A DNA stretch of 64,000 bases from Yuukianura sp. NJ FZ-2021 (taxonomy: Eukaryota), in the NCBI GenBank assembly GCA_046563655.1, contig CM102283.1, positions 9,796,001-9,860,000 of the forward strand, given 5' to 3'. Both the position numbers and the translations under genes were made by a program. Below, one piece after another: positions 36,309-41,731 of this stretch (positions are counted from its first letter, which is position 1; each line of letters opens with the position of its first letter). Below the pieces are notes generated by a model. The model had not been told where the DNA came from. It saw only the letters and a program-made list of their open reading frames with translations, and made no database searches.

Positions 36309-39038
36309 CTAATCTAGAAACAAGTCATTCCAGGGGAACGGTGGTATACAATGTTCTTCAGTAACAATCACTGAATCATGGTACTTCATCAATACTTCCA
36401 GGTACTCGTCCTTCTGAAATTGGAAATTTTATCTTTATTCACATATTCTCTTTTTAAAAATTTTGGAATATTAGGATTATGTGTAGAAAGTAATTCAACA
36501 CTCACCTCATTAAAATCCTCAGGATCGAAGACGAGTTTTTGAAGGCGTCGTAGTTGCCCAGTTTGGCTGGCGTAAATAACCCCCTTCCAGCACTCAATTT
36601 TCAGGAACGATATGAACTTCAAATGTGTCAGTACTAGTAAAAGCAAACAACATTTGTCAATACATGCACCGCAACGTGAACGATCATTTTGTATTTCTGG
36701 ATGGATTTTTTTTTGGCGTTTACAACGGTTTACTAATTTATCGATCAAAAAATTAAAAGATAAAAAGCTGTATTATAAAAATTGATGACTTACACGGCAA
36801 ATTTCGAAAAGAATCAATTGACTCGGAAGTTTTCTCAACTACTGGCAGAGAATTGGTGATGTCGCCATTCGAAATGTATTCAGCTCCGTTGGTTAGGTGG
36901 TTCCAGTGTTTAAATTGAAGTTCACGAATATCATCAGGTTCATTTGCTTCAGAATGGACATAAATGTGCAGTTTCTGAACCTTTGGAAACTGGAAAATCC
37001 CTTTCAATGTTTCAGAGGCAACGCACAATTCAGTAACGTTGGGCAGTACGGAAGGCCAATGTTGACGCTCTTGGTCCGTTTTCAAGTAGATATTTGCGTA
37101 TTTCACATTTGGAAAAACACATCCAGCAAACATGAACTTATCCGTCGTTCCACGATATATGCAGTCGAGCGATGTTAGAGCTGGAAATTCCACCGTGTGA
37201 CGTAAAGTGACTGATTCGTATGGGAAATAAAGTTCCAGACATTGAACATTTGCGAGGGAACGGAGTGGTAGTTCAATTGGACCAATGTAGTGGTTATGAC
37301 CATTGTCGTCTCTCCAGAAGTGGAGACATTCTACATATAATCTGCGCAAAGATGTCAGCTTTGGAATCCATTTTGAAATAATTTCCAGGGTTTGAGCTAC
37401 ACTTCCAGAACTGGGATCCCGTGGAATCAAGAATAATTCCAAGTTGAGAATTTTGAATTTCGTTGAAACTGCAACCAAGTTTTCGAGGTCACTGATGTTC
37501 ACCTCTGGAAAGTGAATAATCAGATGCAACTTTTGAATGTGGACGATTCTATTGATTTTGAAGAGATGGTTTAAGATGTTTGGCGCAAGAGTACGGTATG
37601 ATGTCTCATGATAGTGTAAATCTCCAACACATTGGATTGAAACGTTCCGAAGATTTGGAGCCTTTTGCAGAAGAACCAGAAGATTATTGAAATCCACTTT
37701 GTCCATAGAATCGTCGGCTTGGATCTTGATTGTTTTTAACTTTCTGAGTGCAGGCATTTCCAGAATATTGGCCATTTCCTCTTTCACAGTTGGCACAGTT
37801 CCCTCTTCCCCAATTCGATAACGGATTTTTTCTACATTTTCGCATGTTTCCAACAGGATTTGGAAGTTGTTGAACAGAGAATTCTGTTTTAGCGGTTGCC
37901 GGCAGGACATCCAAATTCGCCAGCATTTAACAATCCTTCCAAACTGGACACAAAACTCTTCCAGTGGCTCCCCATACGCGGAGAGATGTTGCGAAAATCC
38001 AAACTTTTTGAACGGAACGACCGTTTCGTTTTGTCCAAACACCGAAATAAACTTGACAATGTCAGAGTCTTCTGTAAAGTTCACTCGAAACAACTTGGTC
38101 ATACATGTCGTTGCTAGTTGGTTGAAGCGGTGATTGACCAGGCGCAACTTTGGAATTTCTTGCTTCCTCAAACAACCGATGATTTGAAGCACAATCTGAA
38201 ACACAATAAGATTGTTAATCATTTGAAGTCAACAAGAACGTGTCTAATTTTAACTTTTTTGTATGTCAAATGTTGTTCGAGCTGAGATTCTTGTTGTATA
38301 AAAATACGTCTTGGATGTTTAAAATAACGTTATTCAGTGGAATGCAAAACCAAAAGACAGTGCCAAAATATCCGCATATTCCCTGTCAACCTGTGTAGAG
38401 TCTAATTTGTTTCAAGGTCGAAGATTGCAATAGTTTTTACAACTAGGAGCCAAGTTGACCTTACCTCGTTTGGAATGGAATCCATGTTGGCACTGGCAGT
38501 GGAACACAAACGACCAGGATCACTTGCGAGAGACGGAGTCGTTGTTGTGACTTTTTCCAATTTTGCGGGTACTGGTTTTGACGATGAAGCTGACGACGAA
38601 GGAACTGATGTTGAAGATGCCACAGTCGTTCCTAATGTTGCTTCTTCATTGCTATTCCCAAAGGCCAAGGTCTTCGACTAGAATAATTACAAAAGCAATT
38701 ACCAATTGAATTTAGGTCAGTTTATGAAATGAAACTCACTTTTTCATGAGCAACCTTGGCATGCCTCAGAATGGCAATAATGTCTCCCATAGCAGTGATT
38801 TCCATATCGCGGAGACACTCTTTCGTAAGATCCAGGAGCATGTCCGGTTTAATCCGATTGTCTTCAAACACCAACGCATATTTGGTGTCGAAAGTGGGTA
38901 GAATTCCAGCATTCCTGAAGAAGTCCAACCAGAAGGCTAAACAAGACAAAATATCAAATTAAAACAAATTGAATTCCCAAACTAATTCGTAAATCAGTGG
39001 AAATTCTTACCATATAACTTTCCCTTTTCAGCAGACAT
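36309..39038 (-). CDS. Chimeric gene: C19orf47-derived SAM-like N-terminus fused to an F-box / LRR-like protein
   Basis: Predicted exons 39038-39011, ~38936-38740, ~38677-38465, 38195-36794, ~36633-36506 and ~36414-36309 join in frame. The duplicated C19orf47 exons run into ...PSLASDPGRLCSTASAN-MDSIPNE|IVLQIIGCLRKQEIPKLRLVNHRFNQLA (F-box), followed by LRR-like repeats (PALRKLKTIKI, APNLRNVSI, LTSLRRLYV, FPALTSL, FPNVK, LPNVTEL). Confidence 0.75.
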
Positions 39039-40158
39039 GTTAAGGCTAGTAGATCTTGACTTGAGGACGTAGACGTTGACCTACCGGTAGAAACCTTATA
39101 AGATGCTTTGTGTGACGAAGTGGTTCTTAGTTTGATGGAGCAGATTGGAAAATGAAATGGAATGCAACGCGAATGTTATACGGAACACCACGAACGATTG
39201 ATTCAACGTCACTTGCTGTTGATAGTTCCCGGAAGATTACTAAAATAACTTTCAGTTAACTCAAGGTAAATAGAATAGTAAAGGAGTTAACTATGTTAAT
39301 TCGGTTTCAAATTTAACCAATAATAGTGTCATTTAAAACATCGCAGCGTTAAAATTCAAACTTGTATCGCGAATCGCTATTGGTTGGATTAGTTCTGACA
39401 AATCTGACAGTTCTTAGGATTAGTTGACTCATTCCTCGTTGACGTTTCGATCATCAGCTGGGCCAATTAAGATTTTGTTTCTAAAGTTTCATTTCTCATT
39501 TAGCATCTCCCTTCTAATTAATCGATTAACTTCTACGCAGCTGTTGATGTTACATTCCATCATCAGCATCTTATAAGGTTTCTACCGATAGGTCAACGTC
39601 TACGTCCTCAAGTCAAGATCTAACTAGCCTTAACATGTCTGCTGAAAAGGGAAAGTTATATGGTAAGAATTTCCACTGATTTACGAATTAGTTTGGGAAT
39701 TCAATTTGTTTTAATTTCATATTTTGTCTTGTTTAGCCTTCTGGTTGGACTTCTTCAGGAATGCTGGAATTCTACCCACTTTCGACACCAAATATGCGTT
39801 GGTGTTTGAAGACAATCGGATTAAACCGGACATGCTCCTGGATCTTACGAAAGAGTGTCTCCGCGATATGGAAATCACTGCTATGGGAGACATTATTGCC
39901 ATTCTGAGGCATGCCAAGGTTGCTCATGAAAAAGTGAGTTTCATTTCATAAACTGACCTAAATTCAATTGGTAATTGCTTTTGTAATGATTCTAGTCGAA
40001 GACCTTGGCCTTTGGGAATAGCAATGAAGAAGCAAATAACGAAACAGCAGGAACGACTGTGGCATCTTCAACATCAGTTCCTTCGTCGTCAGCTTCATCG
40101 TCAAAACCAGTACCGGCAAAATTGGAAAAAGTCACAACAACGACCCCGTCTCTCGCAA
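38524..40158. repeat. Near-perfect inverted duplication: arms ~38524-39107 and ~39565-40158 (about 0.59 kb), spacer about 457 bp
   Basis: ORFs 38722..38949(-) and 39724..39951(+) translate identically, and the 5'UTR and introns also match. Visible differences are scattered substitutions, a 1-bp UTR indel and a 9-bp in-frame indel (EEATLGTT vs EEANNETAGTT). Confidence 0.97.
39108..39564. promoter_or_regulatory. Putative bidirectional promoter between the chimeric F-box gene and C19orf47
   Basis: Divergent ATGs at 39038 and 39635; CAGCTG E-boxes at ~39455 and ~39538; ATTGG (CCAAT-like) at ~39379 and CCAAT at ~39463. Confidence 0.5.
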
Positions 40159-41731
40159 CGACTTCCAAAGTTTCCGGTATGCTTTTATGGATTACTTTAG
40201 TGTTTAACGTTCCTGATGTCGTACATGTGCAAAGCAATAATGGTAACAATATCTTGTTTCTATGCAGTGAATGTGAAGGCTCCAAACAAAACAGCGAAGG
40301 ATTCAACCAAACTTGCAGAATCTACTAAGACAGATCCAGAACTAGGAACTGCTGGAACAGTTCCAGCTAAGCAGGAAGCTGAGAAACAGACAGGAAAAGC
40401 TCAAAAACGATTTATCATCGTTGATCCAGAAAGCAGCTCGGATTCTGATCTTCCAGATCCAGTGAAACGTCCACGGGAAGCCTCTCCTGCTGAGCAAAAG
40501 AAACGAAGTTCAAATGCTTCTGAAGGCTTCTCTGGTCTGCTCAGTAGTCGACGTAAGTTGAACACAACTTGATTAGTCCTTCTAAGTTTTAAATCCTAAA
40601 ACTATTCCACCAGTTGGACCATCAGTTAGCACGGAGAAGGTGAAACCGTCGACTACGAAAGGAGTATTCGATAGACTCGGGAGAACGAGTGACGGAAACC
40701 CATGCATCTCCGGAGAAGCAACAATTATTAGACCAAATCCTTCATCAACTATTTCTAAATCTACTATGGCCAGTGGAAGCGATGTAAGGATTTTTAAAAT
40801 TACATTTTTATTAAAAATCATCAGACATTTCTAATAAGCTGTTTCTTCTTTTCAGTCTTCTTCAGTATTTGAGCGATTGGGACAAAGGGGAAGTGCCAGT
40901 GTATCTACATCAACTAGAACTACTGCTGATGAACCCAGTTCATCTCGTTCTCGTCCTCAAGATGACTTTGATCGACGTCGTGAATCTCTAAGGCGAGACG
41001 ATTACCGAGACAGCTCCAGAGTCGAGGGAAGCGATCGTCGCATCACTCTGCGTCAAAGATCGCCACAACTGGCCAGTCCAGGTAAAACGTTCTCAAATTT
41101 TTTTAATAGTAAGTTGATAAAATAGATTCCTCCAACTTTGGATTTTCCACTTTTCAGTGGTGAGAGTGGCACGGAATCCACCAGGATATCGCTCACCTTC
41201 AAGCACTGTTTCACGCTTGCATTCAGACGTGTCTGATTATAAAACACCAAGTCCACGTAAATCCAAAAATATTATATAAAATATAATAAAATAAGATAAT
41301 AATATAATAAATAAGAAATATATATATAATAAGTTATAAATATAATAATAAATTATAGCTTTCTTTGTTAACAGGAGGTCGAGGTGAGGCTGATTTGAGG
41401 TCAAGAGTTGGTTCTGGAACTGGAAGGGAAAGTCGGAGAAAGGTGAATAAATAGCTTAGTAAGCCAATTACATTTAACTATGCGGTGAGTTCAAACGTTT
41501 TTCTTCCTTCTTTCAAATGTACTTTTGTTTTTGTAGATAATTGGGACTACTATTATCAAGACTAAAAACCGCGGGAGGGACTTCCGTGTGGGTCAAGTAC
41601 TTAAATCAACCAGGATCGAACGGAGCGATGGGACTTCAGTCGTTCAACGCTTCATTGTCAAGAAAGTTTCAAAACCACCACCAACACGTCGCGGATATCT
41701 CCGCAGTCGCAGTCCCTCCGAATCCGATTGA
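39635..41731 (+). CDS. C19orf47: C19orf47 homolog (N-terminal SAM-like/DUF5577 domain, low-complexity Arg/Ser-rich remainder)
   Basis: FWLDFFRNAGI..KYALVFEDNRIKPDMLLDLTKECLRDMEITAMGDIIAILRHAKV matches C19orf47 W..FF..AGIP...YA..F.DNRI...MLLDL.KE....G.T..GDIIAIL.HAK. Downstream repeats GVFDRLG, SVFERLG and HCFTLAF-adjacent RL motifs; stop at 41729-41731. Confidence 0.85.

Follow-up and report, generated by a model that had tools for sequence, protein, structure and literature searches.

The window analyzed here, a stretch of 64,000 nucleotides (nt) from the genome of the arthropod Yuukianura sp. NJ FZ-2021 (GenBank assembly GCA_046563655.1, contig CM102283.1, positions 9,796,001 to 9,860,000 of the forward strand), contains an inverted partial duplication that is both real and evolutionarily recent. 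The 5′ end of a C19orf47-like gene on the plus strand recurs, in the opposite orientation and nearly unchanged, within the leader of a neighboring minus-strand gene that is probably an F-box gene. When read through the copied and the native splice sites, the minus strand carries a frame that stays open for 690 codons and is predicted to join the SAM_4 domain of the C19orf47-like protein to an F-box/leucine-rich repeat (LRR)-like protein. The chimeric gene structure is real and young, and it may be neutral. All positions below are counted from the first letter of the window.

An inverted copy of the start of a C19orf47-like gene

A repeat search over positions 36000-42000 returned three inverted pairs and no direct repeat families. 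The pairs, 38638-39050 with 39623-40035 (413 nt), 38524-38639 with 40043-40158 (116 nt, 97% identity) and 39050-39107 with 39565-39622 (58 nt, 98% identity), are all fragments of one interrupted inverted repeat, the arms of which we then aligned with MAFFT. Arm R (39565..40158, plus strand, 594 nt) belongs to the C19orf47-like parent gene and comprises 70 nt of its leader, the ATG at 39635, exons 1 and 2, introns 1 and 2, and most of exon 3. Arm L (38524..39107, minus strand, 584 nt) is the inverted copy of arm R. A near-identical inverted match of 584 nt is far too long to be explained by chance. An earlier note on this DNA, which was made by a model from the letters alone, had described the start of C19orf47 as copied in inverted orientation with few differences, and the repeat search and the alignment arrive at the same coordinates.

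Seven substitutions and two indels, of 9 bp and 1 bp, distinguish the arms. The shorter indel and one substitution fall in the copied leader, each of the two introns contains a single substitution, and the other four substitutions, along with the 9-bp indel, lie in exon 3. Exons 1 and 2 show no differences at the nucleotide level. The earlier note had likewise given a frame-preserving 9-bp change as the sole coding indel. The 9-bp difference involves positions 40034-40048 of parent exon 3 and 38634-38640 of the copy, where the linker reads ...EEANNETAGT... in the parent and ...EEATLGT... in the copy. The arms are too alike to permit a test of selection between them. Beyond the ends of the arms, the left and right sequences are unrelated in the alignment, with no notable bases in common at either breakpoint. 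One breakpoint, at 40158, falls inside exon 3 of the parent, and the other, at 38523/38524, falls upstream of the ATG of the F-box gene.

The parent gene runs on past 40158, whereas arm L stops in the leader of the F-box gene. Because the parent reads on in this way, and because springtail orthologues carry the SAM domain at an equally N-terminal position (for example, residues 9-73 of 518), we assign the C19orf47-like gene as the source of the copy. Its exon 1 (39635-39662), exon 2 (39737-39933), exon 3 (39996-40176, copied up to 40158) and exon 4 (from 40268, not copied) all have GT/AG borders, and the leader in arm R includes a TATAA at 39572-39576. The uncopied remainder of the gene (40159..41731) consists of the end of exon 3 up to 40176, the exon from 40268 and later exons containing VFDRLG and VFERLG, with the exon structure resolved to 40572. 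Exon 2 of both arms matches SAM_4 (PF18017) in Pfam with an E value of 1.9e-21 and 76.4 bits, compared with a cut-off of 23.6. A search for relatives of this domain yielded 46 at E ≤ 0.001; the exon is 55-72% identical to arthropod C19orf47/CG16812 proteins, and the best three matches are springtail proteins at 69-72% identity. The VFDRLG and VFERLG motifs in the later open reading frames of the parent fit the VFxRLG consensus of the orthologue alignment, and the three scanned pieces of the parent gave no Pfam match at E ≤ 0.1.

The fused reading frame and its F-box-like host

In arm L, copied exon 1 (39038-39011) and copied exon 2 (38936-38740), which encodes SAM_4, retain the splice signals of the parent, and the same flanking signals surround all of the copied splice sites, as the earlier note had observed. 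The next exon is a fused one (38677-38465, minus strand). Its first part, 38677-38524, is copied exon 3, from which the frame continues into a 38-nt link that lies outside the repeat (38486..38523) and then into the first codons of the F-box gene. Together with the last base of arm L, the link makes 13 open codons (SDPGRLCSTASAN) that connect the copied exon in frame to MDSIPNE. Such a read-through into MDSIPNE had been predicted, with the number of novel codons given as 14 instead of 13.

The native coding sequence of the F-box gene opens with the MDSIPNE segment (38465..38485), and a gtaagg donor follows. The intron that begins there (38196..38464, gtaagg...cag) interrupts the F-box motif, the remainder of which is encoded at the start of the main exon (36794..38195) ahead of a body of LRR-like β/α repeats. 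The penultimate exon (36506..36633) encodes LTHLKF...CWKGVIY...GQLRRLQKL and aligns by eye with the C-terminal part of a relative, P0002, described below. The last exon occupies 36309..36413, and its stop codon ends at 36309, the coordinate from which the earlier note counts the locus. This gene model agrees with the previously proposed arrangement, in which a gtaagg..cag intron separates MDSIPNE from an F-box remainder beginning at 38195. The predicted chimera would consist of 139 added residues followed by the native 551-residue protein that starts with MDSIPNE, so that SAM_4, a Ser/Thr-rich linker, the 13 new codons and the F-box/LRR-like protein follow one another in that order. Its predicted junction peptides are VTTTTPSLASDPGR, LCSTASANMDSIPNE... 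and LCSTASANMDSIPNEIVLQIIGCLR. With a SAM_4 Pfam match in arm L and an uninterrupted frame of 690 codons, the in-frame fusion of SAM to F-box put forward in the earlier note is upheld at the level of the gene model.

The gene that received the copy is probably an F-box gene. Over its first 60 residues, the main exon matches the F-box-like profile PF12937 (E 0.012, 15.8 bits, cut-off 24.3, profile positions 8-36 of 47) and the F-box profile PF00646 (E 0.027, 14.8 bits, cut-off 20.5, positions 8-39 of 43). In both matches, position 8 of the profile coincides with residue 1 of the main exon. MDSIPNE therefore fits positions 1-7, with the intron splitting the motif, which is spelled IPNE on one side of the intron and IVLQIIGCL...LRLVNHRF on the other. 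Language-model features of the host protein also point to F-box clusters, with a score of 0.94. An AlphaFold (AF2) model, based on an alignment of three sequences, displays alternating strand/helix units, and the top Foldseek matches to this model are COI1, D3, MAX2, TIR1 and FBXL3, with E values from 4.5e-7 to 8e-4.

A full HMMER search of 1.84 billion representatives with the F-box body produced five matches at E ≤ 0.001, of which two, P0002 and P0003, are true relatives. They show 24% and 26% identity, respectively, in the alignment, and P0003 aligns LRLANSTW with the LRLVNHRF of the main exon. The other three (P0001, P0004 and P0005) are repetitive proteins with short matched stretches and were set aside as spurious. 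A word-indexed search for relatives of the F-box body found none. The C-terminal part of P0002 seems to read through the intron of the window gene (...NLKRNLTINLIF...LTHLEF...CWKAIIY, compared with one exon ending at 36794 and the next starting at 36633), and P0002 was probably predicted on a eukaryotic contig by a gene caller that ignores introns.

Junctions in read-derived contigs and the upstream region of the F-box family

A search for public sequencing runs listed five DNA runs and no RNA run. Of the five, X1-X4 derive from one sample, possibly the source of the assembly, and X5 carries another organism label and belongs to another study. We placed contigs from X1, X2, X4 and X5 on positions 38000-39560. 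Junction a (38523/38524), where arm L meets the leader of the F-box gene, is bridged without mismatch in two of the four runs, by X1 record 4 (38463-38597, depth 139.5) and X4 record 19 (38462-38597, depth 12.4). At position 38524, loose ends in X1, X2 and X5 have the sequence with which the parent continues, so that the arm-L form and the parent form coexist. Junction b (39107/39108), between arm L and the left end of the spacer, is crossed with at least 31 letters on either side by X4 record 22 and by X5 record 30, which has 87 of its letters in the arm; the contigs of X1 and X2 start 30 letters before it. The native junction c, between arm R and the right end of the spacer, appears as opposite-strand joints in all four runs. 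In X1, the depth of the arm interior is 358.3, and at 38567 the arm-L form (139.5) and the parent form (195.5) together come close to this value; on the other side, the corresponding values are 270.7 compared with 92.8 and 158.2. This roughly additive depth is consistent with two copies rather than with a rare chimeric read.

These junctions bear on the possibility of an assembly artefact, in which a fold-back or a chimeric read would have produced a second arm that does not exist. Such an explanation is largely refuted, and we regard it as very improbable. Inverted arms that are close together and near-identical are the classic shape of this kind of artefact, and no single contig from X1, X2, X4 or X5 extends across both arms. 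Against this, the arms are told apart by their seven substitutions and two indels and are separated by 457 unique bases, the junction contigs have depths comparable to those of the parent form, X1 interior depth is additive, and junction b is also found in X5, with its separate study and organism label.

The spacer between the arms (39108..39564, 457 nt) is the upstream region common to both divergent genes, and it contains CCAAT motifs in opposite orientations near 39317 and 39381, as noted by eye. Contigs of all four runs join 39236 to 39389, omitting 152 nt (39237-39388), and one X1 contig joins 39237 to 39322, omitting 84 nt; X1 has no cover at 39248-39284, which is a coverage hole and not evidence of absence. 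The segment 39237-39388 could be an indel polymorphism of the common promoter region or a paralogue difference. At 39177-39181, the contigs of X1, X2, X4 and X5 show a small complex change relative to the window, and none of them has the window form. Haplotypes that differ here would explain the discrepancy, as would a local misassembly of the spacer.

The F-box gene appears to belong to a family. Summed contig depth in X1 peaks at 1775.9 over 38424-38476 and at 2159.8 over 38159-38211, approximately 10-15 times the neighboring single-copy depth, and numerous divergent loose ends begin at 38485-38488. The first exon of the F-box gene and the start of its main exon are therefore multi-copy in these genomes, which fits the reported expansion of F-box genes in springtails (PMC10087712). 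Elsewhere in the window, the F-box gene has no paralogue and the spacer is not repeated. The family is multi-copy in the reads, yet just the two distant relatives noted above are present among the 1.84 billion protein representatives.

Some contigs join the first exon of the F-box gene directly to spacer-like sequence (38489>39201, 38491>39149 and 38496>39190), and one such contig, from X4, probably carries on across the 39236>39389 joint, given its equal depth of 61. We take these contigs as paralogues (or alleles) because they are at least 8% diverged or multi-copy. Their similarity to the window ends 4-11 nt before the F-box ATG is left behind, too near to it to speak for or against the suggestion of the earlier note that the link is former F-box 5′ UTR. 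Their arrangement suggests that the spacer consists in part of upstream sequence native to the F-box family, and that the insertion of arm L separated this sequence from the ATG. The earlier note had proposed that the F-box gene captured a housekeeping bidirectional promoter. This proposal is not supported, since the divergent intergenic region would already have been common to both genes and the F-box gene needed no foreign promoter. What it gained is 70 nt of parent leader, with the TATAA copy at 39100, together with the ATG and the SAM exons.

X5 also offers a view of the direction of the changes between the arms. Its contig linked to the parent agrees with arm L at positions 38567, 38634/38635 and 38685 and in the 9-bp indel, and with arm R at 38955. 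The parent thus seems to carry a derived 9-bp insertion. If X5 represents an outgroup, most of the changes since duplication, including this insertion, seem to have arisen in the parent arm of the X1-X4 organism, although the numbers are small and bubble-popping during contig assembly could mislead.

The remainder of the window is an ordinary gene-dense animal region in a Pfam scan. To the left of the locus lie matches to calpain domain III (6038-6439), chitin-binding peritrophin-A (9720-10184), TFIIA gamma (13271-13768), septin (20591-21493), a member of the NAD-dependent epimerase family (23111-23782), asparagine synthase (27561-28367) and PIG-M (34131-35309). An NAD(P)-binding protein (42104-42808) lies just past the 3′ end of the parent gene, followed by protein-only RNase P (53240-53938) and a fibrillar collagen C-terminal domain (60835-61269).

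The predicted product and its relation to known systems

We propose that the first 594 nt of the C19orf47-like gene were copied mirror-wise into the leader of an F-box/LRR-like gene that would already have stood head-to-head with it. No minus-sense ATG occurs between 39331 and 39039, and a minus-strand transcript starting anywhere in 39039-39331 would consequently meet the copied ATG as its first AUG. Such a transcript would splice both copied introns by means of the parent's own splice sites, and its translation would yield a SAM_4-linker-F-box-LRR protein in place of the native one. Judging from the sequence, we lean toward this SAM_4-F-box-LRR fusion as the default product of the locus, replacing the native protein.

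Several observations weigh against the reading of the locus as a SAM_4-F-box chimera. With respect to the host, the whole main exon (480 residues) has no Pfam match at E ≤ 0.1, including none to LRR, and both of the F-box scores given above, obtained with the contiguous translation of the exon alone, are under their curated cut-offs. The fold model is poor, with a mean predicted local distance difference test (pLDDT) score of 53.8, its Foldseek template modeling (TM) scores are low (0.27-0.37), and generic LRR proteins rank just below the best matches. The earlier description of the host as an F-box protein thus draws support from partial profile matches, features and fold matches, and it falls short at the Pfam thresholds for the exon alone. 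With respect to the frame, approximately 18% of such insertions would leave an open in-frame link by chance (P ~0.18), and the open frame is accordingly no evidence of selection; nor is the absence of differences in exons 1 and 2 significant, given seven substitutions in 584 nt. With respect to the reads, the chimera is known from DNA alone, all five listed runs being DNA runs. X1, X2 and X4 come from the same sample and are not independent, junction a is unbridged in the contigs of X2 and X5 (a coverage hole and not evidence of absence), and, as mentioned, both arms are never joined in one contig. X5 has contigs over both spacer junctions (depths 17.1 and 19.9), its arm interior is a single contig (record 29, depth 13.9) that runs unbroken into the parent continuation, and the sole contig on the F-box side (record 28, depth 4.4) jumps from 38496 to 39190. 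On this evidence, only the outer 87 nt of arm L (39021-39107) are demonstrably duplicated beyond the X1-X4 sample. The full-length copy is evidenced only in that sample, and the contigs are incapable of showing its absence elsewhere.

The chance of an open link and the restriction to DNA also favor a second reading, in which arm L is a dead fragment, transcription of the F-box gene starts within or below it, MDSIPNE is kept as the start and no SAM-F-box protein is made. The paralogue or allele contigs add to this, as they place the first exon of the F-box gene near spacer-like sequence, so that the native leader of the family may be short. On the other side, the insertion has put at least 584 nt between the ATG and the upstream sequence of the family, a TATA-like box and an ATG, both in sense orientation, came in with the copied piece, and every copied splice site is intact. 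We consider the dead fragment a serious competitor that is clearly less probable than the fusion as default product.

A further question, which follows from the earlier note's idea of a natural degrader or dominant-negative regulator, is whether the fusion, if expressed, is functional. As a subunit of a Skp1-cullin-F-box (SCF) complex, it might use SAM_4 to direct C19orf47 or interacting proteins to ubiquitination, or it might act as a dominant negative. The architecture is intact and the SAM domain is nucleotide-identical to that of the parent. The human C19ORF47 protein is reported to be associated with nuclear speckles and proximal to mRNA export, and its proximity partners there (10.1101/2024.07.03.601239) make it plausible that the copied SAM domain could carry interactions. 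Conversely, the copy is without the entire C-terminal part of the parent, and the search of solved structures with the SAM profile gave Sla1 as its only match in the PDB (E 2.3e-4). With arms so similar, nothing speaks for selection, and expression, Skp1 binding and SAM-SAM contact are all conjectural here; a complex prediction with two copies of the SAM exon scored 0.00 with its alignment unused by the tool, and so counts neither for nor against binding. We judge an expressed and functional fusion to be improbable. Slimmer still is the prospect that the fusion is co-expressed with the parent from the mirrored promoter and assembled into SCF, with SAM_4 bringing C19orf47 or partners in mRNA export and nuclear speckles to ubiquitination. 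Were this true, the locus would represent a naturally arisen, co-regulated degrader of the parent's own complex, within approximately 1% divergence of its birth. Most likely, the fusion is a young variant, perhaps neutral, of a single gene from a fast-evolving, multi-copy F-box family, and it is probably not a refined new function.

The host resembles F-box/LRR receptors of SCF complexes such as COI1, TIR1, D3/MAX2 and FBXL3 in that, by its modeled fold, an N-terminal F-box-like motif precedes strand/helix repeats. The conceptual protein differs from them in its extra N-terminal SAM_4 and in a Pfam F-box score that is below the cut-off for the exon alone. As in the C19orf47/CG16812 family, which combines SAM_4 (PF18017) with DUF5577 (PF17740), SAM_4 is located at the extreme N terminus, but the chimera retains only the first 126 residues and lacks the C-terminal VFxRLG/DUF5577 region, since arm L ends at 38524. 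None of the 46 SAM_4 relatives has a listed F-box domain, and we found no description of a SAM_4-F-box architecture among the papers listed first for C19orf47 and for DUF5577/SAM_4/PF18017, which is a thin basis.

Hairpin-RNA loci provide another point of comparison. In Drosophila, such loci are reported to arise from inverted duplicates of a parent gene (PMC10317233), and the present locus is likewise an inverted duplicate of part of a protein-coding parent that lies close by. A transcript through both arms would fold into a hairpin of ~580 bp and could give rise to small RNAs against C19orf47. The arms, in contrast to those of hairpin loci, face outward from likely promoters, with splice sites and frame intact. 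Because they read outward in the sense direction from a common spacer, the two mRNAs would contain one arm each and would not be complementary, and read-through from outside the pair would be needed. The geometry thus favors two sense mRNAs, and we regard a nascent hairpin-RNA locus as extremely improbable.

If the chimeric mRNA exists, the locus would show with great clarity how a gene is born by domain grafting, with parent and chimera adjacent, the breakpoints known to the base, all introns kept and seven substitutions accumulated since the event or the last gene conversion. It would also mean that neighboring genes can come to have the same leader, start codon and first domain through an inverted duplication that spans their divergent promoter region. 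On the DNA evidence, the locus is an example of a well-documented process within an F-box family. Chimeric genes formed by partial duplications that ignore gene boundaries have been surveyed in Drosophila yakuba (Rogers et al. 2017, PMC5460883). As in the cases described in that survey, the breakpoints here lie inside genes, the 5′ end of one gene is joined to the body of its neighbor, exons are shuffled together with regulatory sequence, and the young copy sits beside its parent. Unlike those chimeras, the copy is inverted rather than tandem, spans a divergent intergenic region in mirror image around a 457-nt spacer and is known from DNA alone. The locus in Yuukianura thus represents a familiar route of chimeric gene birth, here in an inverted form.

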